Positions 8,034 to 64,000 of a stretch of DNA of 64,000 nucleotides are shown in pieces; position 1 is the stretch's first letter; each line of letters starts with the position of its first letter. The stretch is from Amphiscolops sp. MND2022 (lineage: Eukaryota): contig OZ076409.1 of NCBI GenBank assembly GCA_964187785.1, positions 39,868,001-39,932,000 on the forward strand, written 5' to 3'. The translations under genes and the position numbers were made by a program. Under the pieces are notes generated by a model. It did not search any database and was not told where the DNA came from. It was given only the letters and a program-made list of their open reading frames with translations.

Positions 8034-8489
<456 letters not shown>

Positions 8490-32102: not shown

Positions 32103-32645
32103 AGTGGCTTGTTCCCTTCTCGGTGCGTGGAGGATTTCCAATTTACCAACGCGGAGAAGCCAAACTTCACTAGCTGCCCGGGATTGCAGACCTTAGTTCA
32201 AGAAGAGGAGAAGCTGTTTTCTCCGCCTTCAGAGGAACCTGCTCCTAGGTTGTTGGCCGGAAGATCGCCTCATTCTTCCAGAAGAGGAGACCAGTCACAC
32301 CTGCCCGTTGAAGTGAATCCAGATTTTCCCGCCATATTCGGCTCAACTCTTCAAACTGCCATGAAATGGAACTACAGCTTGAGGGATGCCAAACAGAATT
32401 TCAAGTGCACTATCTTATCTGAACTGTATACATCTCAGAACTGCGAAGAGTCTTTAGAACATGTGCCTTGTGTTATACAGAGCATGATTGAACATGTTCA
32501 GAAGTACGGGAGCGTCGATGGCATTTACAGGTTGAATGGAAGTAGCAGCGAAATTCTCACTCTCATATCGTCTCTAGATTCAGGACATGTCGACTTGGAT
32601 TGGTCTAATTTCGACATTCATTCTGTCAGCTCGCTTCTAAAGCAG
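32103..32645 (+). CDS. ARHGAP32/33: ARHGAP32/33-like exon (end of SH3, RhoGAP N-terminal half with arginine finger)
   Basis: TTTTAG| SGLFPSRCVE..IFG..VPCVIQSMIEHVQKYGSVDGIYRLNGS..DIHSVSSLLKQ |GTTAGA. Confidence 0.9.
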
Positions 32646-32668
32646 GTTAGAAACATTTGATTCAGTCA

Positions 32669-34363: not shown

Positions 34364-34803
34364 AAAATTGATTCTGGGTTGTTAGATTTTCGTTTTGTTC
34401 TGTTTTTGTACATTTTTAAGGCCAAAGAAAACTAGGAAATTCCTGTAGAAAAAGTGTTGATGCTCTCACCAGTGATTTGACCGTTAAACGCAGTTTAACT
34501 ATAGCTACCGCTAATGGTCAAAAACTGTCTCGAAACATTTTCTGATGATCTTCATAAATAGAGAGCACTCAGTGGTCTAAAATTTGAGAAGTATTCACAG
34601 AAATGATATCTAGAATTCATGAAAAAGTAATTACAAGGTTCTTTGCTTACTTACTGAATGCCGGTATACTGCAAAGTAAAATTTTCCCTACAAAAAAGAT
34701 ACTTGGTGGAATCAGTGTTCAAACAATGATCACTAGCTTTGGCGAAATAAGCTACACGCGGTAACTTTGAGTGTGGGTAGTGATGTAGCCACTAATTTCA
34801 CAT

Positions 34804-35295
34804 TTTTTATTTCTGCGATAGCAGGAATGATATAAAAGCTGTAAGGAGGAGTTTTTCAGCCGAGTATGCCCGTTAACCGAGTACCTAGTGAAATGATTCA
34901 AATATTTCCGGCTAGTGAGGATGAGCGTGAAGGTTAAATTTTTCAAGCTGCCACCGTATAATCTTTGACTTCAAGCGAGCGTCCGCCACCGCATTAATGA
35001 AGCCAATGAATATTGATTTTTCGTACATCGAGAGCCTGCATGTTTTACAATACGAATGAGAAACGTCATAGTCATATACGTTCAGTAGTTGTATTCGTTT
35101 GTTCAAGTAATGAAGCCTATCGTCCAGGAAAACCAAAGTGTAAACTGGTAGATTCATTAATTGTACGCTTTATAATGAACTAACCGAAGTGTATACTAAT
35201 TGATAGATTGCATATTTTGATTTATGAACTTTGAAGTTAATGATTATTGTAGCTTAAAGCATAAATAATACTGAGCCCCACAGGGTCCTATATTT
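34804..35295 (+). mobile_element. HINE-like element, family 2 (diverged)
   Basis: TTTATTTCTGCGATAGCAGGAAT 5' end; AAAGCATAAATAATACTGAGCCCCACAGGGTCCTAT 3' end. Confidence 0.65.
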
Positions 35296-36441
35296 CAGAA
35301 TGAATTCGTCCCAGAAACTATTTCGAAGGTTCTACGAAGTTGCTCGTTTTTCCGAGGCGCTCTTTGTTGCGAAGGGTCACTTTTCCCAATTGGGAACTTC
35401 TGTATTGGCGGGTAGAGGAAAGAGGTGGACGCTGAAGATTTTCGAAGTATTACGCTACCCATGCGTACATTTAGTGCTGAAATGTTTCTTTGAGTTAGAT
35501 GAATGCCCTCTGACTGAATTTCGTAGCTTGACATTGAAGTTGTAAATCGATTTCAAAATTTTTTCAACGATATCTTACACGTTTTCGTGTATTTCCTTTA
35601 ATAGATTTTTTCCGTATGCAATTAGATGGTTCAATTTGTTCTCGCCGGCGAAGTATACGAGCAGCTCATGAATGGTAATTACACTTGTGATAAGCAAGTG
35701 TTGTGGGAAAGTGCCAGTGCTTTTTTTCCGCGCGACAAATCCCTTGCCGGCAAGTCGCACAGTTCATGTGTTCGTGCTCTATTGGTAAGATGCTTGCTTT
35801 TCAACCCTTCGAACCGGTGCGTATGCGCTAATTTTTTTACAAGCAGAAGGTTCCCACTTTTGTCGGCACTATGAGACTCCCCTTTTCGGCTTTGTGAGAC
35901 TTTTTCGAAAAGTTTTTAATGTCTACAAAGGGTCCCTCCAATTTTTTGATATTTTGCAACAAATTGGATGTTAAAAAATCTCAAAGCGTCCCCCTTTTAC
36001 AGTTTTCGGGATTGAGATTTTTCAAAATGAATATTTGTGATAAAATTAGGTTTTCTCGGGCCCAGCACGCTATATCCGAATTTTGTTTTTTTAAGACCGT
36101 CTTTTTTTAAGCGACTTCTTTCTAATTTGTTTTCATTGAACTCCCTCTCAATTTTTACTAGAAACGAAACGTTTTTTGAAAAGTTTTCTGTTGGGAAGGA
36201 TGGGTTTTTTGTTGTTTCCAGTTGGGAAAAATGGTTTTCAAGTCTTATGCGCACCCCTTCGGGTATTTTTTGGTGCTGGAAAATTGATGGAATTTTAACA
36301 ATAATGTCATTTTACCCTTGGTTCTCCGGATGATTTTGCTCATTTGGTTTTCTCTTCAAAAGTTCGCAAATTTCTTCGCAAGTGTTTGAGAAGCACGGCG
36401 TCGCCTCTGTGTGATATTTGATTTAAAATTAATTGTTTCAG

Positions 36442-38238
36442 TACTTTCGAGATCTGTCTGTGTCATTAATACCGGCCAACAATTATGCAGCTTTCATACA
36501 ACCTTTGGTCTCTAGACCTGAGTTGCTGACGGAGCAATACAAAATGAATGACTTGGAAATTGGAGCTAAGGACTCTTTGAGATGGGCGTTGGATGAGATT
36601 TTAGAGCAGCTGTACCTGTTGCCTTGTACTTATTATCATACCCTGAAGCTGCTTATGCTGCATTTGAACCTGATGGTGTCTAAGGTTGAAATGACTAACA
36701 TGAATTTGTACAATCTTGCCATAATGTGGGCCCCCAATTTGCTGTTCGACCCTCTAGAGAAAAATTGCCAGGATTACATCGAGATTGCTAAGAAGGCGAA
36801 AGAAACCGCTGCTAGGAAAGGTAAATTGATGGAGATCATGATCGCATATGCTGGACACTTGTTTTGTGACAAGCTCACCAAATCCACCCTGCAGCATATT
36901 AACGAAATAGGTTGTAATGACAAGTTGCGCGGAAGACCTCGCTATGAGAACGAAGATTACGAAACTGTGATTCTCGCAAATCGGTCTAAAGATATCCCGA
37001 TATCGAATTCTGTCAAAGAACGGGATGGAAAGAACGACAAGTTCAAGTTCATGATCCAGAAATGGTTCTCTAAAACCGAGAAGATGAAAGAAGCTCCGAA
37101 GAAGCAGCGCAGTACGTCTTTGATACATCCATATGAGTCTTACATGCAGCGAGATGAAAATTCCTATGCATCTGGGCTGTATAGTTGCATAGGGACGGGG
37201 AGTACAAGTACCAAGGATCTGAGAGAAAACCCTGCAACTCCAGATTCGTTTGACGATGTCAAGGGTTTCAAAAGCAATCATGATTACAATAGTTTTGATT
37301 CTCTGGAGCGAAGTGAATACGGTTCTGAAGATTCAACGATCGCAGGATTTTCCCAAAACATTGGTGCTAGTAGACATACTGATTTAGAACATTCTACATC
37401 CACTATCATGGATGACCCTGAAAACCATATTTATTCCCAAATTCAGAAAAGTAAAAACAGCTTCTCCCGTAGATCCGAGAGTTTTATTACGGCTAAAGCC
37501 TTCAACGTGCAGACCTATGACGAAGACCAGGACGAAGTTTTCAAATCCACCATGCCCCCTCGGTCTACATGCCCTAAGAATCTACGTCTTCTGTCAAATG
37601 GTTCATCTTCCAATTCCATGACGAAAGAAGACGCGATTCCTTTCATAGATAGCACTTCCCCGACTTCTGCCAGCAGCACTCCTTTCATGTTCAAACACGG
37701 GCGGAATGAGTTGAATAAAAGCAAAGACTCTTCGATTGATATGATTGAAAAAGACTTGGAGCCTGTAACGACCAAGTCTTCAGTGCGATCTCCTGTACAA
37801 CGCCGCCAACCAACTGCTGGCTTCGGTTACGACTATAACGCAGGTTGTACTCTGGACAACTTCAGTTCTGACAGAGCTTACATCCCAGCGAGCAACGCAA
37901 CTTATCAACGCTACTTCAACAGAGAGAAAAGCATACGTAGGGGACCTAAGTCAGTGACGCCATTGCGTACATATAGACCTCGTAACACCAACACTGACTC
38001 AGCTGCCAATTTGATGCCGAGGAGCAGACCAGTTCAAGAAGCAAGTCCGCTCCTGTTTCGCCAGTCGCCTCTATCTAGTCATCCAATCGTTAGCCCTGAG
38101 AGACTCAAAGCCAGCGGAGAAGGAAGCGAAACGCTTCAGAAAGGCAACTTGAAGGGCAACTGGGGTACTGCTTATTCGTTTGATTCAGGTGTGGAAAACA
38201 ATGGATCTTCTAATGATGATTTGCTGAGCAATACTTGA
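36442..38238 (+). CDS. ARHGAP32/33: ARHGAP32/33-like last exon (RhoGAP C-terminal half plus long Ser-rich tail)
   Basis: TTTCAG| YFRDL..LPCTYYHTLKLLMLHL..TNMNLYNLAIMWAPNLL; open for 598 codons to TGA. Confidence 0.9.
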   Translation, partial: YFRDLSVSLIPANNYAAFIQPLVSRPELLTEQYKMNDLEIGAKDSLRWALDEILEQLYLLPCTYYHTLKLLMLHLNLMVSKVEMTNMNLYNLAIMWAPNLLFDPLEKNCQDYIEIAKKAKETAARKGKLMEIMIAYAGHLFCDKLTKSTLQHINEIGCNDKLRGRPRYENEDYETVILANRSKDIPISNSVKERDGKNDKFKFMIQKWFSKTEKMKEAPKKQRSTSLIHPYESYMQRDENSYASGLYSCIGTGSTSTKDLRENPATPDSFDDVKGFKSNHDYNSFDSLERSEYGSEDSTIAGFSQNIGASRHTDLEHSTSTIMDDPENHIYSQIQKSKNSFSRRSESFITAKAFNVQTYDEDQDEVFKSTMPPRSTCPKNLRLLSNGSSSNSMTKEDAIPFIDSTSPTSASSTPFMFKHGRNELNKSKDSSIDMIEKDLEPVTTKSSVRSPVQRRQPTAGFGYDYNAGCTLDNFSSDRAYIPASNATYQRYFNREKSIRRGPKSVTPLRTYRPRNTNTDSAANLMPRSRPVQEASPLLFRQSPLSSHPIVSPERLKASGEGSETLQKGNLKGNWGTAYSFDSGVENNGSSNDDLLSNT

Positions 38239-44674: not shown

Positions 44675-47037
44675 ATCTCCTACCAAGTTTCCCTTAAAGG
44701 CCGTATGTTTATTTTGAATTCTTACCTATCAGCCTGTCAACCCATTTTTGTGACTCCAGTTTTCTTGCTGTCATTTTCCGATGGTGGGCATTTGCCCTTC
44801 ACTCGAGCCTTAAAACGGATTTTAAATTTCAGAAATGGAGTTTCCGATTTCTGATGAGATTGTGTTTTATTATAAATGTTTCAAATTTGAATTAAAACTT
44901 GACCCAAATTAATTTTTTTATTATGCGCTATTCTAGAGAGTAAGATTAATCTTTCATTGCCGGAAAAATAGACACCGAGCACAGCCCGCGATTTGAAACT
45001 TTGATATGTTTGATGAAATACACTCGAATAGGTGTTCAGATTCGTTCCATAGTAGGCCTTTTGTAGATGCCGAACAAGTTCAATACAAATAGCGAGTTCG
45101 TTTTCATCAAGTTCTCGCCTTGTTCGCAATTAACTTGGTGTACAAAAAATGGAGTCAAAGTTTGAGAGGAATTGAGTATCTTTTACTGGCATCTCTCCAA
45201 TCATAAGAACGATAATAGCCTTTCCGGGAAAAATTTCCGAAAATTGGTCGCTTGGATACCGATTTCTTCTAGTTGGATGGTACAACTTGGTGTTTGCTTT
45301 GGTGACATATAGCACTATGTAGTCTGCCAGGTCAAACAAGGTCCAGCAACAGTCCTTGTTTATCTCTCATCTGCATGTTCTGCCCTCTTTGAGCACCACC
45401 GATAGCACAGAGGAAAAATCTCTAAGAAGAACCACAATACTGTGGCTTCCATAGGTGATGATGTTACAGACTAATGAGAGGCAAATAAAAAAGAGAGAAG
45501 GGAGATATAATGTATTGCAAACTGTATCTCGAATCAAAGGAAACCGCAACTGAATGTTATGTTAAGTAACTCATTCTAGCATTTGTGACAGGTGTTGGTA
45601 AATACTATCTTGAATTCACTTTTAGCTTAACTGCTCTTTTTGTACTCTGTCACACTCCCCAGTTTAATACAACACCTGGGTTAATTCATACATGGTAATA
45701 AATAAACCATAGCTGTTAGTGTTATTTATTTCAGATTACATGACTTTTTGGTGATAATTTAGTAAAGTAATCACAACAGTATTTAATGTTTCTTCTGTTT
45801 CAGATGTTTTCGATTTTTGTGTTTCTTTCTTCATCTTCGACTTTTGTCGCAACCCAGAAGTTGCGTGGGAGCCCTGGCGCATCAATAAATAAAGCCAAAC
45901 AAGATAACACCCACAACAAACTCTCGAAACTAGAATGTAGGAGAAAACTTTAAACCAATGAACTAACATTTTGTCTTGTTTTGCTAGTTTTGTAAGTTAT
46001 GTAAGTACAATATTTGTATGTATTCCATTGATGAAGCCTTCTCTAATAATGCTAATGAACAATAAAACTTCAATGAGAACCCTTATTTACACATACAATG
46101 AGTTGCCCAAGTCTTAGATGACGTAATTGGAAGCTTAAACACATTTGAAATTGTCCCCAAATAGTAATTTTCCTTCCAGCATGGTACCACTATGCGGTAC
46201 CATGCGGATCGAGGAGTGACGTATACTCGTCACTATGCGGAATTTTCCACTCTATTATGCGGCATTATACGTTTCGAGGTGTGACGTATACTCGTCACTT
46301 TACGTTTTTAGCAGAGACACTATGCGGCATCCTGCGGAACGAGTAGTGACGCATACTCGTCACTATGCGTTTCTTGCAGGACCTACTATATAACGTGAAA
46401 AGGTGATATAGTGCTATTTGGAAATCATCTCGAATGCAATTTATACTATATTCTGAGTAATTTCCAGGGTTTCTCTAGTCCTTTCGTTAAAGATGTTCCG
46501 AACGTGATATAATTTAGTTGATGCTAAAAATAGGACGACGTTACCCTACGTAACTCTATTTTTACTTTTTCCTAACAATGACTATGGAAAAAAAAGAATG
46601 TCATGTTATTTTTTGGAGCTTCTTCATTGTAAACTGAGAGGGGGAATCATTCAAAACTCAACCGTCAAATAGTGCAGTTGTCCCCTTCGTACATTTGTAA
46701 ACCTTTTGGTGTCTTTGCGATACTCTCAGGTCTTGTTGTTTTGAATAAACAAGATAATGCAAATTCTTCCCCAAAAGTCAGAAACTATTTTTCATTCAAA
46801 GCAATATGGGAAACAAACGTAATAGACGTTCTAGAAGATTGGAAACTCCGTCCCAGATAGAGAAGTAGAAGTAACTCAAGTAGGAACGTCCATTTCAGGT
46901 AATGATAGGATTGAAAAGATGAGAGAAGAAATGGAGAATAAACTTGAAACAATCTGGAAGAAAATAAAATTAAACAAAAGTGCATCAACTGTAACAAAAC
47001 GATAAATCCGATGCCGACGAAAACGAGGATTATCAGA
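44675..47037 (+). repeat. 5' LTR-like direct repeat (left end undefined)
   Basis: Aligns to 59644-61865 with reciprocal deletions. Ends TATCAGA immediately before the PBS. Confidence 0.8.
46186..46372 (+). repeat. 65-bp-period array (3 units) in the 5' LTR
   Basis: GTGACG(T/C)ATACTCGTCAC at 46216, 46281 and 46346; TATGCGG cores. Confidence 0.9.
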
Positions 47038-48056
47038 TGGTGACAGGAGCCAACCGACAACTCTATAGTCAAAGCTCTCAAAAACTAAATGACACAGTAG
47101 GATCCCCGCAGACCACAACTTGTCAAATTCGACAGTAAAACCACTTGACCCAGTTAACCAAATCGTTTTAGCAATAGAAAAACTGGCAAATAAAAACCCT
47201 ACACAATCACGTTTTCATCCGAAAAACACATTAACTTTCAATGGACAAAAAAACGAAAAAATGAGAAATTTGAATACTTCGAAGACTTATTCAATACGAC
47301 ACTTCGAATGCAACAAAACCTAACAGAGGACAAGAAAATTAACCATTTTCATGCCCACCTCAGGGGTTTGGCACTCAAGACATTCAAGAACATACAACGA
47401 ACCCCAAACACGACTTTAGAAGACATACTCAAAATCTTTAGACGAAAATATGTGAAACCGGAATGCAGTGCATCAGCGAAGCACAGATTCAACAGACTCT
47501 CAATTGACCCGGAAAATCAGAAGCTCCCAGAAGAGTGCTGAAAAAGCATTTGGGGAAAACGCCCACCAAACGAAAGAAAACTTACTATATGCAAAAATGC
47601 CTCCCCACTTTAAAAAGTCAATTATTCAAGGCTACCTCGAGAATGGCACATATGATCCAAAGAGGAACCAAAAAGGAACAAAACACTGAAAAACCCAACA
47701 AAAAACAAAATGATAAAGCCAAAAATCAAACTCCAAAAACAGTACCCGATAAAACACTCAAAAAAGACCAATGCCGTTATTGCAATGATGCCAGCCACAT
47801 GATGACTGACTGCCCCAAATTAGCAAAACGGCGGAAACTCGAAGAAGACCCGGATCACCCAAATGCCCCAACTGCCAAAATTCAGGTCAAGACGAAGAAG
47901 ATTGCTATTTTGGTGCCAATATGGATAACCGACCACCAACATGGAACTTGACTGAAGCACAAAAGAAAAATATCGAATTCTACAAGCCAGCAAAAAAAAA
48001 ACCAATCAGACCAAAACTGGAACGACACCAACAATCCTCCTCAAAGGATATAAACT
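46806..48056 (+). pseudogene. gag: Gypsy gag (frameshifted), starting inside the LTR
   Basis: MGNKRNRRSRRLETP..; KINHFHAHLRGLALKTF; CCHC knuckle CRYCNDASHMMTDC. Confidence 0.8.
47038..47049 (+). promoter_or_regulatory. Primer-binding site, probably tRNA-Leu type
   Basis: TGGTGACAGGAG directly follows the LTR end and is one mismatch from the TGGTGTCAGGAG complement of the tRNA-Leu(CAG) 3' end (from memory). Confidence 0.65.
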
Positions 48057-48359
48057 AGAAACGCCACGCCTTTACACAAAATCACCACAAGTATCGAACT
48101 CAATTGATGACTGGCAGCATCAGTTGAGCCCAAAACCCACAAAAACACCAGTCTGTGAAGCTGACAACAGAACACCTATGACGGTTAAATCTGGAAACTC
48201 AAACTGAAGACTTATGCGAACTGTTACATGACGCACCAGACAACTACTTTCCCCAAGAACCAAACAACCCCGCAACCGACTCAAACTCAGAAATCCAACA
48301 CACAACAAAACACCACGTAACATAAAAAACTTCTTGCAATGATGAAAAACAACAACCCT

Positions 48360-51300
48360 TAAATGAAGATCTCACCGAATACATACAATTTGACAAAGAA
48401 CGGATCTTGTCATACCTTCCAATTTCAACCTCCTTGATATTGAAGCGAAAGGGTCACATGTATTACATTCCAATGGACTTCGAAAAACTCACATTTGACG
48501 GTCTCATTGATAACGGAGCCCTTACAAGTGCAATCTCCGAACAAGACCTCACTAAAATCAAGGTGCTAGCAAATGAAGCAATTAAAGAAACTGGTCCCCA
48601 CCAAACTTCTAAATTATGGTGGCCAATGGACAACTAGAAGTCCCCATTGGTACTGTATTACTAGAATTTCACTGAAGTGGCTAATTTCATGGTAAAGGAA
48701 AATTTCATCATCATGAAAACTCTACCAAACTCGCTAATCGGATTGTGTTTCCTTCGCAGAAATAACGCAATTTTTGATGTCACCCAAGGTATCCTTACTT
48801 TCCCCTATCTTTCAATGCAGCTCAAACCTGATACCCAAACATCGATACGACAAGCAACACCATTGTTTGCTGAAATCACCTAAACCTTACAACCAGGCGA
48901 ATTTCTCGCCATCGCAAGCAGAATGCCCCATCTGATGGACCATAATGCCACTGGCATAGTCACCCCATCACAACCATATGAAAACCATGATAGCATTTTC
49001 ATCACTGCATCACTCAGTACTGTTAACAACAATGCTATCGGGTACCAAATCATCAACTTTTCTGAACTACCATACACAATCACAATGGACACCCAATTAG
49101 CAGATTTTAAGATATAAACCCCAGAACAAATTAAACATATACAACCAGTAGACGCAGCCTTGCTATCTTTCATGATACAACATGAGGAAACAACAGAAGT
49201 TTACATAACTTCTCAAGGTACCACAACAAAATTCCGAGCCGGAAACATACTGGTTCCCTACCCCTGAAGAACCAGGCGACCCTGCAACATACACTCCAAT
49301 TCAGCAACGTATCTACAAAGTACTTCTTGAACTACAAGAACTCGAGAAACTGAACCCAAATGATAACGACACATCCAGAAAAACATTTATTTCAAACTTC
49401 GACTGGTCCGACACAACGCTCAGCCCAGACTAACGACAAGAAATTGAAGAGACTATCGTTGAATTCCACGACATTTTTGCCAGACATCGTATCGATATAG
49501 GCATAAACCGTGAACTCAATGTGAAACTAACGCCGAATGTTGACAGACCTGCTTACAGTCAAAGTCTGCCGACTCCAATCAATCTCAAAGATGATATCAC
49601 AGTAGAACTTGCACTTCTACATAAGTACGGTATCATTACAACTTTACCGTTCTCCAAATATGCAAGCCCAATTTTTGCACGACGCAAACCTAACGAGCGC
49701 CTTAGACTTTTAGTAGATCTCAGGAAGATCAACAACCTCATCACTGAAGATTACACCAATAACAATTACCCGGTAGGCACTTTATCAGATGCAGCCCAAC
49801 ATATGGCAGGGAAAAACTTTTTTGCAAATTGGATTGCTCACAGGCTTACCACCGCCTTCAGATGGCAGATTACCAACCCATTCAGATGCTCGCCTTTAAT
49901 TCTGCAAGTAGAACATTTGCTTATCGTCCCCTTGCTCAAGGTCTCAGCAGATCACTTTCTGCATTTTCAAGCTTTATGAGAGACAACCTAGATAGAGCAA
50001 TCAAGGCCGACCAATGTCTCCAATATGTCGACGACATTGGCATAGCGGCAAATGACACAAAACAATTGTGTACAAATATCAAAACTGTCTTTGAATGCAT
50101 TCGAATGCAGGACTAAAACTCTCAATGTCAAAATGTCATTTTGGAGTCAAACAAGTCGACTTTCTGGGACGCACAATACAAAACCGAATGGAGTCGCCCC
50201 TCAAGACGACAAAGTGAAAGATTTCCTCTCGAAACTTCGCGTTCCTAAGTCAAAAAAGGCGTTAAAAAGGTATATTGGATTTTTAAACTTTTACCGAAAC
50301 TACAAACCACGCCTTTCGGAACGGCTTTCTCCGTTCTTCGAACTCCTCAAAGAAACCTCCAAATTCTACTTACCTACAAATTTGGTGGAAGCCTTCACCA
50401 ACCTCAACTAACTTCTAGAAAACTCCTGTCAGTTCGCTTTAAAACAACCACTGAAAAACAAGCAATTTATAGTCATGTCCGATGCTAGCTTCACAGCAGC
50501 AGGATATGCTATCATGATCGAAGACGATCCGAACCGAAAACTTCAATCTAAACGCAAAACATATGCACCCCTTGCATTTGGTTCGAAAACTTCCAATCCA
50601 ACACAGACAAAAATGTCAATTTACGCAAAGGAATTTTTTTCCCATATACTTTGCATTTGTCGAATTCGGACACCTCATGTGGGGTAGTACCTTCCCAGTA
50701 ATCGTGTTCACAGACAATCGTTCCATAACCCGTTTTTTCCAAACGGAAATGATCCCTCCAGCACTCTGGAATGACTGCAATTACGTCCTTCAATACAACT
50801 TCGTGATCGCAAATGTTGCTGGATCTATGAACACCGCTGCCGACTTCTTGTCTAGAACGGAAGTCGATCCAACCGAAAAACTAGAAATGGCCATTCGGAA
50901 TGATATTCATACGAAAGCAATCGAAGTGAATATCCAATCAACCGGCATTGTTGAAGAAGAACAAATCTATGTTCTCCCCGATGAAGAAATTCACGAGATT
51001 GAACTCTGGGAAGAAAAACAAAATGTACGAAAACCAAGGCCAAACGGAAACCCACAACGACCCAGAAAATGAGGTTGCTGAACTACAACACTTTCATAAA
51101 CCCACATCAGGATTGATCTCAATATCATCTGGGTAATTCAAGGACAATGCAAAAATTTGCCCTGAACAGAATAATGATGTAGTCCTCAGAAATCTGCGAG
51201 CTAAAATCGAAGGTAACCCTTTTGATGAAAATGAATTGGCATCCGATTACCTATACCAGCATTATTCAAAAACATAACGCGAATAGAGATAAGACATAAC

Positions 51301-52880
51301 ACGAATTATCTTACACGCAAATACTACGGGGATCTGGAACCATATCTCACTACCAAATTCTACCAACCCAACTCCTAGAAGTATTGGTTCAGGCCCTGCA
51401 TGGCTATAATTCAAGTCATCCCGGAATCACAAAATGATCCAGGAAGCACGACAAATATATTACTACACTTGTATGGCAAAATACATCAAAAAATGGGTTA
51501 GTAATTGTCAAATCTGCATCCAAACAAAAAAAATCAATAATAATCTCCTCAAAACAGAACTCCTCAACTGTCCAGAATGGGATCTCCGTCCGGAAAACAT
51601 TTTGCAGATGGATATTTTACCGTACCTTCCCCCTAGTTGTGGTTATGATCATGTCATCACGGCAATAGATGTCTTCTCAAGATACTTGTTTGCCTGTCGT
51701 GTAACTCGCATTACTGCAACAGCGGTATCAAGAGCCATTATGGATATACTATGCAAGCACACTTACCTTCCAAAAACGATAATCATAGATTTAGGCACCC
51801 AATTCAATGCACAAGTAACTCACGAAGTTGCAGCAGTACTGGGAATTGAACTTAAACACGCAACAATGAAACATGCCCAAACAATAGGACTCCTCGAGAG
51901 AACCCATGCTTCAGTCAAAACACACTTAAAAGCTGCAACAGGAGAATTCAGAAATAACTGGTATAAATACCTCCTTTTGGCAGTCCTTAATCATAACACA
52001 ACATACCATGCATCACTCGGTTGCGAACCTTCACGAGATTTCCATGGTAGAGTACCACATAAAATCCTAGATTACAAACTCGGATATAAACCTAACCCAC
52101 GATACCAACCACAAACAGATGTGGCGGAAGAAATTCAAAAACGCATGAAAATCCTTCTAGATCAATCAAAGGAGAACATCATGCAATCTTACCCCAAATA
52201 CAAAGCTTACTATGACCGCAAAGCAAAAGCAGCTCCGCTGGAAACAACGGATTATTGCTACATTCTTAACCCAAAGGCTGAGACACAGGCGACAAAAATA
52301 CCATTTCGAGAATTCAGATGGTGTGGTCCATATAAAGTAGAAAAAGTACTCCCTAACAATAATTACATTGTCCGGAGCTTTAGGACGAACAAAACACAAT
52401 TACTACATAGGATTCGCAAGCAGAAATTCACTTGCAAAGTTGACCAAATGCCTATTGCAAATGATGATCTATATTCCCAATCATAGAACACAAAATTTGG
52501 GTCTAACCCGTTCGACGATGGTCCTTCAGAATTTTCACAAGACACTGAAGATGTTGAATATACTCCAATTCAAATACCATATGATAACCGCCCACACTCC
52601 CCAGGATCTTCAAAAAACAGTGGGAGGAGCTCAGTGGAATAGACCACTGAACCAGAACAAAGTCATGAAAACCATGCAGATGAAATTCCACAACAAATCA
52701 GTGAAGAATAATCAAAATACCCAAAAAACTTAAAAAAATCAAATAATTCATCAGTAGATGATATTCAAAAAACCCCAGAAAATTCCCAAAATACCCCCTT
52801 GCAAGAAGAACCCATAAACACAAGTGGTGAAAAATACAACTTACACCCTAACCCTAACCCAAATTACTCTGACGCTTAAA
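48360..52880 (+). pseudogene. pol: Gypsy pol (protease, dUTPase-like insert, RT, RNase H, integrase), disrupted
   Basis: GLIDNGA (PR, DTG mutated); ASPIF..RLLVDLRKIN; YVDD; SDAS; H..HPG..C..C; QMD/IID/LLER (DDE); GPYKV. Multiple stops and frameshifts. Confidence 0.92.
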
Positions 52881-53089
52881 GATAATAAGAAAACATTTGC
52901 AGAGGAAAATTTTCGGAATGACCTTCTCAACCGGCACTATAGCGTGCAACTAGCTTCCTCTTTTATTTTTCGCTAGAGTCATACTGGTCATCTAGAAATA
53001 CTTGAAGACGACGACCCATTACAAATAAAACAATTGAAACAAATAACTACAAAGTCTCAAAGAAAGAAACAATCAGTTCTTTTTAGCTC

Positions 53090-54245
53090 TTGAGGGTTTT
53101 CTTTTTTGAATCTTCCCCTTGCTCTGTACTGGAACACCGACTGAGCGAAACACTGATTCGTCCCAAAGAAGGATCAGGAGAAGGAGTACTGTTGACACTA
53201 CTTGCCCCGCTTACACTAGGAGTAGTGGTGGAAGAAATCACAGAAGGTCTCTCTAACCGGAGAACAGCTTTCCTGTACCCAGTCTCTAACTTTCCTTGTA
53301 AAGTCGTCCTCCGAGAATGAGTTCCCCTGAAAAAACTCCATATTGAAATTTTTTTTATCTGTCAGCAGCTCTGCCCCTCGTCCCAAAAGACGAAAAACAC
53401 GGTAAATAGCCCTAGCATCTCGAAATAAACTTGACACATGTGGCACTGACTGGTATGAAATTTGCAGACTGACAACATATGACTGAGTAGGAATTGGCAC
53501 CTCAAAAATGGGGGGACCTCCACTATAGGGGAAAGACACAAGCATGAGATTTTGAACAACTGTAACAGCTCAGGTTGACACTGGACCTCTAAATGTGTAA
53601 CAATGAATTGTATCCAATCGTCATAATCGGGAGCAGTCCCAGCACGGAGTATGGACACGAATGACCGGTATTGACTGACAACCTTTACTTTGTCACTCGC
53701 GGAAATTAAGCCAACTGCCACGAAATGGGTGGACAACTTCTCAATGGCAGACACATAGATATCCTCAGGGCTCTCTAGAATGAAAGGGGAATCGAATGCA
53801 GATAGTCCCCTCAGCAAGTCAGACTTCACAATATCTTGCGTCATTAACTGTTTACAAAAGGCTTTGCAAAAACTCACTGACTGACTGCTCTATGAATTTA
53901 CTAGAACGAGGCAGCCTACTAGCAAGCACAAGACGGTGATAATTTTTGTTTAGCATGATTTGGTCTGCAGTTTTGACGGGTAATTCAGTTGAGTCCAAAT
54001 CCAAAGCAAGGAAAGAATCCCAGTCTGAAATATTCCCTAGAATGCTTTCGGGCAAAATGTTCTGCAACTGGGAATATGTAATTATGGCAAATTGGTTGAA
54101 AAGGCGAAATCGTTTTTGAACCCCTGAGAAAGCTGAATCATCTGAAACACATCGAAAAAGTTTAAATAAAACGACAATTTCAAGAAAATGACCTTAATCG
54201 TGGAAGTTTTCGATTAGTTTGAACAAACAACCTTCTAGTTGGATA
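53090..54245 (-). pseudogene. Antisense accessory gene A inside the Gypsy element (spliced, frameshifted, unknown function)
   Basis: Consecutive - strand frames 54141-53852, 53877-53362 and 53545-53216. A 51-nt GT..TTTCAG intron at 54192-54142. Confidence 0.55.
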
Positions 54246-54289
54246 TGTGAAGTAAATGAAAACACGACAAGTTTCCCGTCCTATTGCAC

Positions 54290-54540
54290 TGATTATGCGG
54301 CACTGTACGGATTGAGCAGTGGAAACAATACGATACTATACGCAATTGTAGTGAGGACTAAACGGCATCACGCGGTTTGAGGTGTGATGACTATACGTCA
54401 CTATGCGGATTTACAAGATGGACTATACGGCATCATGCGGTTCTAGGTGTGATGACTATACGTCGCTATGCGGATTTGCAAGGTGGACTATACGGCATCA
54501 TAAGGTTCAAGGTGTGATGATTCTACGTCACCATGCGGAA
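54290..54540 (+). repeat. 65-bp-period array (3+ units), internal
   Basis: GGACTA(T/A)ACGGCATCA at 54355, 54420 and 54485. Confidence 0.9.
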
Positions 54541-54639
54541 ATGAAGATGAAAGCGTGCTGTAGTAGAACATGTCAATAAATGGACACGTTTTGCCTCCAC
54601 AGGACAGAAAAAGGAATGACAACTACATACATCAACTTT

Positions 54640-57517
54640 TTATAATCTGTCTGGAGAAACCTCAAGCTTATTTATAAAAGGAGAAATTTGATTGAACCCC
54701 CCATAAAATACACTGAAACAAAAACGCGAAGAGTTGTATTTCGGACTCCTAATACTAACTAAGATTAGCGCAAATAGAAATTGCCAGGAGATAAAATAAC
54801 TAACATTGATCGAGGACACATCTGATATTGAATAGTCGTGTGAGATAAGCAGTATCCAGACGAAATCATTCGTCAAGCGTATTGGGCTAGAAAAACACAT
54901 GGGATAATTGATTACGAGACTAACTGTGCAATATACCGTGAGTAGAGATAATAACCTTTCTCATGTGGAAACTGTATGCAGGAAGCCGGACAATTTGGTT
55001 GAGGTGATCTCTAACTTCCCAGTTGTTCTCTAACTCCCAGCTGTGCGACAAAATTTCGATTAGGGTCGAGGCATCAGCACGGGAATACTCGAGTCGCAGT
55101 ACACACTAAGAAAAGAATGGAAACACTTAAGCAAATCTTGCCTCAATTACATTAGGAATATAAATTAGGAGACTGAAAGACCTTGTGTAAGGTGGGTAAA
55201 CTCTGCAAACAATCTTTATCTATGGCTGTCCTGAGTTTCATCAGGAGAAAGTCTAAAATTGTCCTGAAATCGCGGCGCTCAAAAATTTGGGCGGTGGGTG
55301 TGGCAAGACAGCGCTCAAAATCATTAGCACCAAATGTGTTGACTAATGATGGCGTTTTTGTCCCTGATAGACAAGATCTCAGACATTCATTTAGTTTATC
55401 CTCATTTCCAATCAGAGAAACGCAGGCTGGAAGCACTTCGAAGAGACTGAGGAAAGAAGACACGAGGGAAAGAACCCTCCTCGGTAAGAGAAGTCCTCTC
55501 GGTGCTCCACCAAAGCAAACCCTATGCATTATACTTTCTGACAAAAAGCAGAGAATGACATAAGAAGCTGTGGTAGTGTGCTGTATGGCTAGGGAGTAAC
55601 AGTCAGAAGTTGATATGGCCTTGACGCAATAGTCCATCAGCTCTCGGAACATTTAGGCCAAAGTTTCCTGTAAAAGAAAAATTATTACCGCTTGTACAAT
55701 CGACTAATGTCTACAATGAAACTTGATGCTAAAACAACTTTGGATTTCAAAAGAAACGCGAATTTCACATCTTCTCAGATGAAAATTGTGCAAAAAAAAC
55801 GAGACTTACAAAGATGCGCTGTTTACTCCAATTTTTCACAGACAGACGATCACGTGATGTTAAACGAACTAGTTCATCGTACATCCCTGTCAGACTGGCA
55901 ATGTTTCCACCATGCCTTAGCCCAAATTTGAGGATGTTGATTTGTGACAGTATCTTTTCCGTTTGACTGGTAGTGACGCTAAAGTCCTGGACGGACTCTT
56001 GTCCCACGAGTGGCCGGTAAAAATCAAGCTGAGGTGGTATGGGATAATTATCTTTTGCTTTCTTTTTCGCATCCTGTAATGCTACACCGAGCAGTTCTTT
56101 TTCGTCACGATCAAAAAGAGGCATCCCTGGTATCTCCATTCTGATACGATGTCCTCTTATCAAGTGCGAGTCAGAGCGATAATGGGAGATTAACTCCAAA
56201 CATCCGCGACTCATTAAGGACAGCTCAACTCTACAGACTCGGCACCACCACTAGAATGGAGTCTTTTCTTTATCTAGGGGCCCTGTTGCTGAGAATTTCA
56301 ACACGGGGTGGCGTTTAAACATACTTCCAGTTAGGGAGTATTTAGGACGTCTCCGTTTCCCTCTAACCATAGTTGAACCTTCTTCAACTTCTGGAAGAGC
56401 AATGTCAGTACTGGCATTAGCGATCATTTCCTCTTGACTTGAAGTAGTCGCTAGAGAGGTGGGGTAACTTCGTCTATGACTGTAAGTGTCAAAGCTTGGT
56501 TCAGATCGGTATCATCTCCGGTAACGAATGACTGGGGAATCCTATCAAGAACACTAGATAAGATTAGGATCTCCTGCCTAGTATTACTGAGGCTTGGGAG
56601 AGTAGTTACAGGATAAATGACTAAAAGACTCATTCGAAAGAACTCCAGCAGTCGATGGGTCCTCTAGGCGATCCTGAATGTTGGGATTATTTCGCGCTTG
56701 GGTAGAAGAACTACCTTGAGCATGAAAAAAAATGCCTTCCTCTCGGATCAACTGACCGAATAGTGGCGTTCGAGTCTGAGAAATACCAGGAGGATTTGAA
56801 CTCCAAAAAAGATTTTGGGTGAAGTCACCCAATGACGCCTCCGTGGGCTTGGCAGTAACAGAAGATCTGGTAACGATCGGGCTGGTCCTAGTAAGTAGGC
56901 ACTATTCGAGCAGCTCACTCATTTCGTGTTTTTCACAAGAAGAGCTTGGGAGACCAGGTGTTGGTGACGTTCTTTCGGTCGCCTCTTCAACAATCCGTAA
57001 AGAGGCTTCAATGGGTGAATCTCCGACTATAGCGGGCTTCAATGGATCAGGAGTCGCGACCTTTAATAGAGTGTAAACTTTTTCGGGTGAACTAGATGGC
57101 GTGCCCTGGGCTGATCATTGTCCAACTGAAACAAATGATTTGTTGTTCAAATGAAAAGAGAACGAATCCTGCAAGCGAAAACGTTTTGCTATTACCTCAA
57201 ACCGGACGCAGGGACAGGAAATGAAAAGAAAATGGAAGTAGCTTAGAAGTCTGAAATGGAAACTTTTCGAAAAATTACATTTTTGGCATAGATTTTATTC
57301 TGGCCATTTTCAATCTGCAGGCCTGGCCAGCCTCTTTTGCAGACAAAAAAATTCAAATATAAAACAATGAACTGAATCCGGAAAAGAACACGTTGGACTT
57401 ACGGGATAAGAGTGCAGGCAGGATGTCAGTTCCCCAGAATTCGTCGTGACTGAGCGAAGCTAAGTTTCTTCGTGACCTACGCTTCCCTGTTGGGCTTGTA
57501 CCAGAGCCAGGATCCAT
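54640..57517 (-). pseudogene. Antisense accessory gene(s) B inside the Gypsy element (spliced, degenerate, unknown function)
   Basis: ATG exon 57517-57403 (MDPGSGTSPTGKRRSRR..) ends at a GTAAGT donor. 70-nt intron 57195-57126. Long P/S/T-rich frame downstream. ORFs 56214-55765 and 55652-55152, the latter following a TTTTACAG acceptor. Confidence 0.55.
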
Positions 57518-57925
57518 TAAGAGGGACAAATGATTTATAAATCAAAGAATCTACAGTAAGGAAGATTGCTGCAAAGTAAATTGAAAGAGGAGTAACAAGA
57601 TGAAAAATGAAGGAAACGAATCCAAATGACTGAGTTGAAGATTATGTTAAGAGATTGAATCTGCAAAGACTAGATTTTGACTAAATTACTGATTTTGACT
57701 GAGAACAGTGACAGTAGGCATCAAGGAAAGTCAAGGTGTGGCGTTAAGAAGAAGGCAAAAAAGCATATGAAACGAGTTTGCGCAAATGTGCAAAGCGTAT
57801 ACTGGAATCTGATTGGTTAATTAAATGTCAATCACGTCTGCCAGCGTGATTGATTGATTCACTATAGCTTTTGGATGAAAGAATACAAGTGGAAATATCA
57901 CTGCAAAGCATATTAGAACGATTTG

Positions 57926-58116
57926 GTATGCGAGAGTATGCGGCAGTTTGCTGATCGACTAATGACGAGTATAAGGCAGTATGCGGAATTGCAGTGAAGA
58001 CTATGCGGCAGTATGCAGATCGACTAATGACGAGTATGCGGCAGTATGCGGAATTGCAGTAAAGACTGTGCGGCAGGATGCGAATCGAGCAGTGACGCAT
58101 ACTCGGTATCCTGCGG
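57926..58116 (+). repeat. 65-bp-period array (~3 units), internal
   Basis: GATCGACTAATGACGAGT at 57953 and 58018; TATGCGG cores. Confidence 0.9.
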
Positions 58117-59643
58117 TTTTTGCTGTGTGTTTTCAAAGAGATGGATTAATACTACCAGTAATCAGAATTAGACGGAAAAAGTAGTATTACGTAAGGTGAT
58201 GAAGAAACTACTCACTCTCAAGGACAAACACGTGTGATACTATTGATGTTTTAATACACAAAACTAATGCTCTTTTGAACCTAATATGGTGGCAAAAGTT
58301 CTGTCTGGCGATACCTTTTGGAGGTTTCTGAATGAACTTACCAGTAAAACTGAAATTCTTTGTTGAATTTTTAGCCCAGTTGCATTTTTCAAATGCAGGA
58401 CTAAGATTAACGCATGGTTTTCCTGGTATAAACTTTAGCTTAGTAGTCTATGAGATTAAAATATGTTGTGTTCATGAGTTTTATAAATTCTTTTCTTTAT
58501 TCAACTAGTCATGTAAGTCAAAATAAATTCAATTCTGAACTGTTTTGATGAATATTTCATAAAAATATTTCTTATTTAGTTACTATGATGTTAGAATAGG
58601 TTTGTTTATATATCATTCAAATAATGGAGAAACGCTGTAACCCTTCATGATAAGTGATGATCTGTTGAAGTTTTAAATGAAACACCTTTTATGGAAGTTG
58701 TTTACAACTTGTTGTGGATGAATCCCTGAAAACCAAGACTCTACGAAACCTTTATAAAGTCGACGAGGGAAATAGAACATGACACTCAACTTTTCCACGG
58801 GTTTTTCTTTTCCCCTGAAGACCGAAGAAGAAGGGAAGTCCATCACAATATGGTCTTTAATTCAACTGAAAGTCAGTAATCTGTCTACTCCGAATCACTT
58901 TGTGAAAAAGTAGCTTTAAACATCTTCTCCAATCATCTGAAATCAAAACAAAAAAATCAACAACCCTAAAAGGAATGCAGTTCAACATTGATGAGATACT
59001 TGACAACTTTAATTCATCACCCTCCGTCATTGATGTGTCCAGTGAATCAAGGGAGGAGTTTATAGTAGAACCCGGGAATATCGAAGCTCTTGATAAAAGA
59101 TTTCGCGTGGTGAGCCCCAACTCAGATGCTATGTCTGCTTTTGTGGGCGCCGTTGCAGCAACCCTTTTCCCTTCTTCTTCTGTTCTTACCAGTCGGAAGA
59201 AGTCATTGACACCACTGGGTCACAAATTGAAAGACAGCTGATGGAACTGATTCAAGAGCACCAGAGTCACCGTTCAAGCTCCCCAACATCGTTCATTGAC
59301 ACTGAATTTTAGGAGTCCCCTGAATCGCCTTATGATCAGGAAATGGAGGACAGCCATTCATCAAACAGCTATGGCAGGTCCTCCGCTTTAGTCTTGCCAA
59401 GCCCCAAGGGGAAGAGGCCGAGGCAGGGGTCTGGTCCCGCACCCGATACCGACCTACCCAACGGGGTTTACTGCAGAAGCTAGCGGCTTCTCTGTCATAG
59501 GGGAGAATATGCAAGAGGTAAGAGCAAATTACTTCAATATTGGGTACACCAGTACACATTTTGGACTTCCAATCACCAACACGATCATGCCATTGGCCAA
59601 AATTATTAACCCAGCGTTGATGATGATACAGATTCCTCTGGTT

Positions 59644-61865
59644 ATCTCCTACCAAGTTACCATTAAAGGCCGTATGTTTGATTTGAATTCTAACCTATCA
59701 GCCTGTCAACCCATTTTTGTGACTACAGTTTTCTTGCTGTCATTTTCCGACGGTGGGATTTTGCCCTTCACTCGAGCTTTAAAACGGACTTTAAATTTCA
59801 GGAATGGAGTTTCCGATTTATGATGAGATTGTGTTTTATTCTAAATGTTTCAAATTTGAATTGAAACTTGACCCAAATTAATTTTTTTATTATGCGCTAT
59901 TCTAGAGAGTAAGATTACTCTTTCATTGCCGGAAAAATAGACACCGAGCACAGCCCGCGATTTGAAACTTTGATATGTTTGATGAAATACACTCGAATAG
60001 GTGTTCAGATTCGTTCCATAGTAGGCCTTTTGTAGATGCCGAACAAGTTCAGTACAAATAGCGAGTTCATTTTCATCAAGTTCTCGCCTTGTTCGCAATT
60101 AACTCGGTGTACAAAAAATGGAGTCAAATTTTGAGAGGAATTGAGTATCTTTTACTGGCATCTCTCCAATCATAAGAACGATAATAGCCTATCTGGGAAA
60201 AATTTCCGAAAATTGGTCGCTTGGATACCGATTTCTTCTAGTTGGATGGTACAACTTGGTGTTTGCTTTGGTAACATATAGCACTATGTAGTCTGCCAGG
60301 TCAAACAAGGTCCAGCAACAGTCCTTGTTTATCTCTCATCTGCATGTTCTGCCCTCTTTGAGCACCACCGATAGCACAGAGGAAAAATCTCTAAGAAGAA
60401 CCACAATACTGTGGCTTCCATAGGTGATGATGTTACAGACTACTGAGAGGCAAATAAAAAAGAGAGAAGGGAGATATAATGTATTGCAAACTGTATCTCG
60501 AATCAAAGGAGACCGCAACTGAATGTTATGTTAAGTAACTCATTCTAGCTTTTGTGACAGGTGTTGGTAAATACTATCTTGAATTCACTTTTAGCTTAAC
60601 TGGCCTTTTTGTACTCTGTAACCCGTAACTCTGTAATTGTACCCAAATAGTAATTTACCTTTCAGCATGGTACCACTATGCGGTACCATGCGGATCGATG
60701 AGTGACGTATACTCGTCGCTATGTGGAGTTTTCCACTCTATTATGCGTTATTATACGTTTCGAGGTGTGACGTATACTCGTCACTTTACGTTTTTTACAG
60801 AGACACTATGCGGCATCCTGCGGAACGAGTAGTGACGCATACTCGTCACTATGCGTTTCTTGCAGGACCTAATATATAACGTGAAAACGTGATATAGTGC
60901 TATTTGGAAATCATCTCGAATGCAATTTATACTATATTCTGAGTAATTTCCAGGGTTTCTCTAGTCCTTTCGTTAAAGATGTTCCGAACGTGATATAATT
61001 TAGTTGATGCTAAAAATAGGATGACGTTACCCTGACGTAATTCTATTTTTATTTTTTCCTAACAATGACTATGGTAAAAAGAGTGTCATGTTATTTTTTG
61101 AAGCTTCTTCATTGTAAACTGAGAGGGGGAATCATTCAAAACTCAACCTTCAAATAGTGCAGTTGTCCCCTTCGTACATTTGTAAACCTTTTGGTGACTT
61201 TGTGATACTCTCAGATCTTGTTATTTTGAATAAACAAGATAATTCAAATTCTTCCCCAAAAACCAGAGTTTGTTTTTCACTCAAAGCAATATGGGAAACA
61301 GACATAATAGACGTTTTAGATGATTGGAAACTCGTTTTAGATGGAGAAGTAGAAGTAACTCAAGTAGGAACGTCCATTTCAGGTAATGAGACTTTAACTA
61401 ATGTTAATAATGTAGTTCAAGGAGGTTTAGGTGAAAACACCTTAGAGAACCATTTTACTGAACCCAGTCAGATAAGCAACGAAATCCAAGAATGGACAGA
61501 GATTATGGATCAAAGGAATAATTGAAGGGTTGAAAAGATGAGAGAAGAAATGGAGAAGAAACTTGAAACAATCTTGAAGGAAGTAAAATCCAACAAACGT
61601 GCATCAACTGTAACAAACCCAAGGTCAGAAATCAACGAAATCAGAGACTCGCAACCGTCGGGAACCAAAACAAATACGTCTATAGGAGTTCACGCGTCTA
61701 ATAACGAAAACTCAGATTCTGAAAACGACGATTATCCTCTCAGAGCTTCTAAAATGAAAGAATTGAAACATCCTGCTAAACCATTGTTCCACAGTGAATC
61801 TGACGTAGAAGTAACCATACTTTCAAACAAAGAATCCGATGCCGACGAAGACGGGGATTATCACA
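59644..61865 (+). repeat. 3' LTR-like direct repeat (may extend left to TGTGATA at 58233)
   Basis: Homologous to 44675-47037. Ends GGATTATCACA, followed by unrelated sequence. Confidence 0.8.
60672..60858 (+). repeat. 65-bp-period array (3 units) in the 3' LTR
   Basis: GTGACG at 60702, 60767 and 60832. Confidence 0.9.
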
Positions 61866-64000
61866 ATTTGCCTACCACGTCTATGCCGTAGCGCTCCGTT
61901 GGCCGTCTTCGGCGTGTTTCCTTTTTCACTGATGCCTTCACGGCTTTCTTCTTTCCTTTTACAGGATTGTTTTCTTTCGTTGGGATTGGCTCGTACCAAT
62001 TTGGACCCTCTAGTCCTCTCTCACCATTATTGCTGAGTCAACTTCCTCCTCAAAATCTGATGTGGTGAACTTTAGGCCTGGGTCTACTTCTGAAACACCC
62101 TTTATTTTGTCTACAATGTTACTTTTTACCGTGTTCGGTTCTCGTCCATACAATTTTCCAAATGGTGACTTTCCGTCCGTTTTTTCTCCCATTCTTAGCG
62201 CGTATAATATTTCCGACAAACCCGATTTGCCTCTTTTTAAGACAATGTTTTTATTCGTTCGTTAACGTTCGTTTATAGTCCGGATAAGTCGCTCGATTGT
62301 ACCGTTTTCCCCGTGGACGCACTGGACAGGTTAATCGATTTATTTGGAAATTAAGACCAAATGTTTTGAGTTCTTCGCTAATAAATACAGTGCCCGAATC
62401 GGATCTAATTTGCTTTGGTATACCGTACTGTGATATGTAGTTTTTTAAAAATTCGATTACTTTCTTGGGTGTTGGTTTATGTAAAAATAGGGCGTCGGGC
62501 CATGCGAAAAAAATATCTATGGTTACTAGCAAGTATTTTTTTCCCGTAATCTGCTTTTTGAAAAGGACCCGCAAAATCCAGTGCTTTTTCGTGGTTAGGT
62601 TTTTCAGATTTTGGAATTTTCCCGGATTGTTTCTGTTTTAGTAAATGTTTAATGTTTTTACCTGCTGGGTTGCACTGATCGCAACTTTTTGCAGTGGTTA
62701 CCACTTTGCAGTGGAGTTTGGGCCACCAGATGTCTGAGATGTACCGTGACATGGTATCTCTACCAGGGTGTCCGTAAAGAATTGAGCTCATATTCGAAGC
62801 GCGTAAATTTGTCGGGATTACTAATCGTTCGTCCATGTACAGATAAATTCTCCTGTCAACGCTAAACGAATCCAATTTTTCGCGCCAGGGTTCAAGCAAC
62901 CGAGAGAGTTTTGCTCCTTTCTTCATTTTCACCAATTGGACTACTTTTTGGAGCATTTTGTCCGCTTCGTAATTTGCAGGTAAGAACGAATCGTTAATTT
63001 TATCAATAACTTCTGACGTGTTATTCAGCATATTTTTCTGATTTTCTCGCTCACTTACTTCATTTAGGTTCGGTACCGCACTGATTTTCTGCTCGTTCCG
63101 CCGCGTGTAACTTTCCTGCGATCTGATTGGTTGATTACCTTTTCGTTCTCTTGCTTACTCAGCAAGCTGTACGTCTTGCTCGCTTTCCACTCTCAATACC
63201 GAATCAGGCGCACGCGGCAGTTTCATCGATTTTGGCATCTCCAGTGGACTTGTCTCATTTTCTGAAATAGCATCAGTTTTTGAGATTGTATTTACAGTGA
63301 ACCAGTCGTTCCATAGTTTTTCAGATTTGACCACGTTTCTTTTCATTTCGCTCGGGTGTCGTGATAGATAATCTGCGAAGCCTAATACTCTACCTGGTGC
63401 ATGAATAACTTCAAATTCGAATGGTAGTAGTCTATCCACCTATCTTCTTAAGCAGCTAGAGAATGTTTTATTACTTCTATTCGGTTTTAGCACTGATGCC
63501 TACGCTTATTGGTCCGAAATGACTTTAAATTTGACGCCGTACACATAGTTTTCAAAATATTCGATCGTCCAAACTACAGCTAGTAGTTCCAATTCATTAA
63601 TAGAGTATTTGGATTCAAAACGTGTCAAAAATCTAGACGCAAATGACACTAGTTTCCATTTTTGGTTATTTTGGTGTTGCTGAAGTACCGCCCCTAATCC
63701 TTGATTACTCGCGTCGCAGATAATTCGCACTTTCTTATCTCTTTGAAAATGTGTCAGTCTTGTTATTCTTTTAACTTCTTGGTTAATCTTTAAAAATGCC
63801 TTCTCGTGTCCATTCCCACTCAGCTTCTTTTTTTATTATTGTTCTAAATGGTGCACAATTGTTAGCCAGGTCTGGTACAAATTTCTTCAATTGGTTAACT
63901 GCTCCCAGAAATGACCTCAATTCTCTCAAATTACCCGGGCGTAAACTTTCTGTGATTCCTTGCACTTTGCCATTTGCCGGGGAGATGCCTTCCCCTGACC
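61866..64000 (-). mobile_element. pol: Second Gypsy element, decayed pol (RT end, RNase H, integrase), continuing beyond the window
   Basis: LRSFLGAVNQ; IICDAS..GAVL; YSINELELLAV; HPG..WWP..C..C; ALDFAGPF; RSDSG; SPFGKLYGR. Frameshifted. Confidence 0.9.

Follow-up and report, generated by a model that had tools for sequence, protein, structure and literature searches.

Why does a Ty3/gypsy retrotransposon of an animal carry, behind its pol gene, about 5 kb of reading frames on the opposite strand? The question is raised by a decayed long terminal repeat (LTR) element at about 46,150-61,865 of a 64,000-nucleotide stretch (hereafter the window) of the 1.07-Gb genome of Amphiscolops sp. MND2022 (assembly GCA_964187785.1, contig OZ076409.1; G000:C1:39868001-39932000 in our numbering). 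An earlier note, made from the window's letters, had proposed an animal LTR-element lineage with several spliced, multi-exon antisense gene cassettes of unknown function. We find one antisense gene instead of several, maintained across a gypsy family and likely derived from a hAT transposase. The window copy is disrupted in gag-pol and in exons 2, 3, 5 and 6 of this gene, and intact gag and pol frames are present in young copies elsewhere in the genome.

The earlier note had proposed to look for the region in other full-length copies, and there it is present, not a nested one-off. A DNA search with window positions 55100-57600 raised 397 candidates, and the 40 that were scored contained 61 matches; a protein search with exon 6 scored 129 of 6,966 candidates, all of the scored ones with at least 63% identity. 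We sampled 61 loci, 19 from the DNA search, 20 from the exon-6 search, 14 from a search with a divergent homolog and 8 with a still more distant one. Integrase directly precedes the region in 17 of the 19 flanked loci of the DNA search, most of which are elements of about 16 kb with LTRs of about 1.52 kb, several LTR pairs 100% identical, and long gag and pol frames. Over all 61 loci, integrase lies directly 3' of the antisense gene in 57, two retain only the pol end and two are rearranged; in the most distant lineages the integrase is 47-54% identical to the young-copy query. Pfam finds zf-CCHC, protease, RVT_1, RT_RNaseH, Integrase_H2C2 and rve, in this order, on a young copy. The LTRs end in TG..CA, a 5-bp target-site duplication flanks 12 of 14 copies, and 13 of 14 use the same primer-binding site. 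By domain order, LTR ends, primer-binding site and short target-site duplication the element is a Ty3/gypsy LTR retrotransposon. All 12 target-site duplications differ and the flanks of the 14 copies have only short repeats in common, so that no sequence-specific insertion target was found among them.

An alignment of 20 cassettes yields a single six-exon model of about 1,078 codons (Table 1), with splicing predicted from the sequence. GT occurs at 96 of 100 donors and AG at 98 of 100 acceptors. In 17 further cassettes (L051, L060 and L065 were omitted for a deletion, a duplication and an insertion) the counts are 85/85 donors, 84/85 acceptors and 17/17 ATG starts, and 10 of all 37 cassettes have every exon open with canonical sites. 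The splice signals are thus conserved above chance, the exon phases are conserved as well, and the structure is strongly supported. The ATG exon of 115 nt that the earlier note had seen at 57517-57403, ending at GTAAGT, is borne out (ATG and GT in 19 of 20 cassettes each), as are the acceptor near 55668 (AG in 20 of 20) and the KRRSRR motif, which stands in exon 1 of the window copy and has a similar basic cluster as counterpart in most copies. Of the proposed introns of 70 nt (57195-57126) and 51 nt (54192-54142) only the acceptors hold, with AG in 19 of 20 cassettes each; the donors at 57195 and 54192 have GT in 5 and 2 of 20, and what is conserved is an intron of 277 nt at 57402-57126 and one of 663 nt at 54804-54142 (intron 5). 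The small exons 55105-54956 and 54886-54805 had been overlooked. Among eight representatives, identity is 65-74% in exons 3-6 and 38-44% in introns 2-5, with values close to 56-58% for each of exon 1, intron 1 and exon 2. Intron 1, at 56% as conserved as its flanking exons, holds short invariant blocks, possibly regulatory. Intron 2 is in frame and stop-free in some copies, which gives read-through frames of 711-732 codons (L070:1980-4175, L083:1525-3657).

The protein frame is under purifying selection across the family. Over 38 loci the antisense frame has a ratio of nonsynonymous to synonymous differences per site (pN/pS) of 0.20-0.25 and hardly any stops, against ratios of 0.34-2.5 and 2.7-7.3 stops per 100 codons in the other five frames. 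Medians of the corresponding substitution-rate ratio dN/dS are 0.04-0.11, and 0.29 for the disordered start (few pairs), but synonymous sites are mostly saturated (pS 0.83-0.89) and dN/dS is therefore based on few pairs. Open, selected frames, which the earlier note had also proposed to look for, are thus found in natural copies; the gene is real, and it is family-wide and under selection. For the 42 of 60 loci in which both integrase and exon 6 have long open stretches, the trees of the two correlate (rho 0.88, 0 of 999). Their deep lineages agree and three of eight strong integrase splits conflict, and the antisense gene tree is about six times as long as that of the integrase core (12.96 vs 2.10). 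This fits one old capture followed by vertical descent and shallow swapping.

Three methods indicate hAT for different exons, in hAT domain order, and no other family recurred in any search. As in hAT transposases (Hermes, 8edg; the DUF4371/FAM200/ZBED-like group), a zinc finger appears to be followed by a helical segment, a likely RNase-H-like start, and what may be a helical insertion and C-terminal region. Exon 3 is likely the first half of the RNase-H-like domain, lacking its catalytic aspartates, and the helical domain of exon 6 resembles the insertion and C-terminal region of Hermes-like proteins. The C-x2-C-x16-H-x5-H finger is conserved, with a zf-BED match in only 1 of 35 members (E 0.2). 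Unlike hAT transposases, the protein appears to lack the catalytic motifs, has a long disordered N-terminus and tail, and sits inside an LTR element with 5-bp duplications. In alignments with positions matched by eye, no Asp is conserved at the strand-1 or strand-4 position and no CxxH or ERxFS is seen, whereas in-genome hATs have the catalytic motifs. The genome has many canonical hATs (150 scored matches). A search of it with PF14291 gave no match, an uninformative result, although a DUF4371-like hAT was seen by eye. No hAT-type terminal inverted repeats around the gene occur among the 25 longest inverted repeats of at least 40 nt in the window, a search that did not extend to short ones. 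Since the packaged RNA represents the opposite strand, the introns of an antisense gene are preserved; an intron-bearing hAT gene that landed antisense behind pol would thus retain them through reverse transcription. We consider it highly probable that the gene descends from an intron-bearing hAT gene that entered the ancestral element in this orientation and, given that origin, are more confident still that it has no catalytic activity.

That the finger, the basic clusters and the fold were kept while catalysis was apparently lost suggests a protein that binds DNA in the nucleus. We propose that the captured transposase, its cutting activity likely lost, serves the element as a nuclear DNA-binding regulator. 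The gene would be transcribed from an internal promoter between 57517 and 58900; the protein would enter the nucleus via its basic clusters, recognise with its zinc finger the short motifs repeated in the LTR and near its gene, and sustain expression of the family's copies, much as an anti-silencing factor or a domesticated hAT transcription factor does. Candidate targets are 65-nt tandem arrays. In the window copy they stand in both LTRs, at 54290-54539 and at 57933-58106; the last of these had been mistaken for the 3' LTR, which lies at about 60632-61865. Two lineages carry arrays both in the LTR and in the stretch upstream of the gene; the core lineage, with a motif of TATGCGG type at 10-nt spacing, has them in intron 5 as well, and the second lineage, with an inverted form, in intron 3. 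Such an arrangement is what one would expect if a factor acted on the promoters of the element. It counts against such a role that arrays were not seen in seven of nine extended divergent loci. Given a hAT origin without catalysis, we lean slightly towards the full sequence of internal promoter, nuclear entry, motif binding and sustained expression; that the protein regulates the element's own transcription or chromatin is, over all, a little short of an even prospect.

The antisense gene has a neighbour. In young copies a sense-strand open reading frame (ORF) lies head to head with it and extends to the 3' LTR (L012:3927-4955). Pfam finds no match on this ORF. Purifying selection acts on its C-terminal CxxC domain (dN/dS about 0.08), which is present in eight of nine extended divergent loci. 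Tentatively, and with somewhat less conviction than for regulation as such, we suggest that an ancient animal gypsy lineage domesticated and disarmed a whole intron-bearing hAT and now uses it as a sequence-specific factor of its own, for transcription or against silencing, with this second accessory gene head to head beside it, and that the arrangement underlies the element's spread in a 1-Gb genome and extends to other species.

Alternatively, a hAT-derived protein might work after reverse transcription, binding the ends of the complementary DNA or integrase and aiding nuclear entry or tethering the intasome to chromatin. Basic clusters at both ends and a predicted DNA-binding finger would suit this role, as would the arrays in the LTR and the failure of the unique deletion copy (below) to amplify; transposases bind element ends. 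PMC7264820 proposes the same role for plant antisense ORFs. A sequence-specific target, however, is missing, and evolution about six times faster than that of the integrase core, with swapping between close integrases, is a poor fit to a fixed integrase partner and fits conflict with host silencing better. We regard this role as unlikely. Slightly less probable again is a restraining role, with copy number kept down by the protein or by the antisense RNA, or a role as dominant negative or decoy against host hAT transposases or silencing factors. The many canonical hATs of the genome and a rate of evolution suggestive of conflict would agree with this, and if an antisense transcript ran to the neighbourhood of the pol stop, it could hybridise to the genomic RNA, a possibility discussed in PMC7264820. 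Yet selection acts on the protein frame and not on RNA alone, the protein is too distant from the hATs of the same genome for sequence detection, and a purely self-limiting gene should be lost, whereas this one is kept in all sampled lineages.

A genuine accessory gene might also have another source than a hAT, such as a gene captured from the host or a virus, its likeness to hATs then stemming from common helical and zinc-finger features. Pfam, PDB sequence searches, Foldseek and most profile tests gave no useful match for the protein, which such an origin would explain; the agreement of three methods in hAT order, with no competing family, makes it improbable. It is very improbable that the gene encodes a second, active transposase or belongs to a separate hAT element nested in the retrotransposon, despite the full hAT-like domain order and the glutamates near the first catalytic position in the most divergent lineages: by placement by eye, core lineages lack the terminal Asp of strand 1 and the CxxH and ERxFS-type motifs of in-genome hATs appear absent, the elements have TG..CA ends with 5-bp duplications in 12 of 14, and the gene stands away from pol only in the two rearranged loci. 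A neutral passenger or chance frames, to which the broken window copy might point, are refuted by the selection and splice-site conservation described above.

The closest parallel is found in the Tat/Retand elements of plants (maize Grande gene23, rice RIRE2, Silene Retand; TRP28/PF04195). According to PMC7264820 and PMC11963269, their antisense ORF lies between pol and the 3' LTR, is kept in most copies, has its own internal promoter, is nuclear with predicted DNA binding, and often stands beside tandem arrays. Its origin and function are described as unknown and a nested-transposon origin as unsupported (PMC7264820), and the same source asks that antisense spliced transcripts be sought; the main text of PMC11963269 does not contain the word 'intron'. 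Position behind pol, retention in copies and neighbouring arrays are shared with the present gene, which differs in its animal host, five predicted introns, about 1,080 amino acids and an origin likely traceable to a DNA transposase; PF04195 (Transposase_28) found no match on its exon frames. VANC, an additional protein encoded by Vandal (MULE) elements, binds short motifs that lie in the non-coding regions of elements related to its own (PMC13317346). Our working model would give the present protein a comparable action, and arrays are co-located in two lineages. VANC belongs to plant DNA transposons, and the likeness lies in proposed action, not sequence. Among animals, bdelloid ORF3s (PMC5408684) and planarian Burro (PMC6431247) are gypsy-type elements with captured genes; those genes, as far as the sources were available, encode nucleases, esterases, env-like or apoptosis-related domains and not an antisense intron-bearing transposase derivative. 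The partly covered literature yielded no LTR element with an intron-bearing hAT-derived gene, and the supplements of PMC11963269 may describe further antisense ORFs. Like host-domesticated DAYSLEEPER/SLEEPER, the protein has a transposase body under selection and is likely a DNA-binding regulator. It differs from host-domesticated hAT genes, among which we also count ZBED and DREF, in that it belongs to a retrotransposon present in many copies, whereas theirs is one locus of the host.

The antisense extra ORFs found in LTR retrotransposons remain a puzzle. This animal case contributes a likely origin from a class II transposase, five predicted introns and young copies whose LTRs are identical; some of its several lineages have candidate binding arrays and others do not, and the protein has a zinc finger. 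If our reading is true, transposase domestication is not confined to hosts, and one mobile element can domesticate another. As Pfam finds nothing, annotation pipelines would miss such genes. A search of representative sequences returned 292 unnamed exon-6 homologs, of which ten looked up are ENA, MGnify and JGI records, and no full-length annotated homolog; the exon-2 search found only two unnamed read-through frames. Many of these homologs may be from the same organism, since one exon-2 homolog is identical to DNA of this genome. Two distant exon-6 homologs tested match it at 24-32% and are likely from other organisms. Metagenome scans for loci of distant homologs confirmed none.

Table 1. 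Features of the window copy (window positions; all nucleotide numbering on the forward strand).
Feature	Position	Strand	Basis or remark
5' LTR remnant	46146..47037	+	lacks internal pieces and the first ~300 nt; matched at 46162-46903 by a young LTR
65-nt (2 x 32/33) tandem array with TATGCGG motifs, inside LTR	46188..46379	+	same site in other copies
Primer-binding site	47038-47055	+	directly after 5' LTR remnant
Broken gag-pol (capsid, protease, reverse transcriptase, RNase H, integrase)	47194..52880	+	Ty3/gypsy order
Exon 6: helical domain, then Ser-rich and basic tail	53073..54141	-	frameshifted in window
65-nt tandem array inside intron 5	54290..54539	+	repeat analysis, other copies
Exon 5, 82 nt, most conserved exon	54805..54886	-	cassette alignment
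Exon 4, 150 nt in window, 135 nt in nearly all other copies	54956..55105	-	cassette alignment
Exon 3, 486 nt: helix, three strands, helices	55182..55667	-	broken in window copy
Exon 2: Ser/Pro/Thr-rich, KRRRPK cluster, C-x2-C-x16-H-x5-H finger, helical segment	55810..57125	-	stops and frameshift in window
Zinc finger C-x2-C-x16-H-x5-H in exon 2	~56250-56160	-	conserved
Exon 1, 115 nt, ATG start, KRRSRR motif	57403..57517	-	cassette alignment
65-nt tandem array ~420 nt upstream of antisense ATG, not LTR	57933..58106	+	repeat analysis
Remains of sense-strand extra ORF	58906..59643	+	~340 amino acids in young copies, C-terminal CxxC motif
3' LTR remnant with own tandem array	60632..61865	+	LTR match and young LTR mapping

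The LTR remnants of the window copy are 94% identical across 761 nt (46146-46905 vs 60632-61389). Each is preceded by a 979-nt segment (44675-45653 and 59644-60622, 97% identical), which takes the place of the end of the sense ORF and the start of the LTR; no target-site duplication was seen at either. In young copies the start of the gag frame lies within the 5' LTR, about 580 nt inside it, and the frame continues through the primer-binding site (L011:1375-1957), so that each LTR holds the start of gag. Host genes lie at 1338-2750, 8034-8489 and 32103-38238 of the window: a protein kinase, presumably Tousled-like, ATP synthase c, and what we take from its translation to be a RhoGAP-like gene. 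ATP synthase c scores 134-140 bits with its four best solved-structure matches, presumably animal chains, and about 76 with 'subunit 9' chains, which we take to be fungal; this animal-like protein and the family-wide copies uphold the earlier note's view of an animal lineage with an antisense gene. A second gypsy-like remnant occupies the minus strand at the right window end (61890-64000).

Tandem duplications or a deletion of the cassette occur in L026-L027, L029-L030, L060 and L051. In L026-L027 and L051 the breakpoints coincide with 65-nt arrays, and these appear to act as hot spots of recombination. L051 is a young copy with exons 1-5 deleted between two arrays; the deletion is seen in 1 of 40 copies and has not spread, and the idea of a successful subfamily without these exons was dropped. 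L105 was likewise dropped as a free DNA transposon, because the end peptide of pol adjoins its gene. In that lineage an 88-nt tandem repeat adjoins the pol end (L105:1-3120). The same repeat forms multi-kb arrays at C6:13.76 Mb, C6:60.06 Mb and C8:57.62 Mb and is possibly a satellite grown from the integrase tail.
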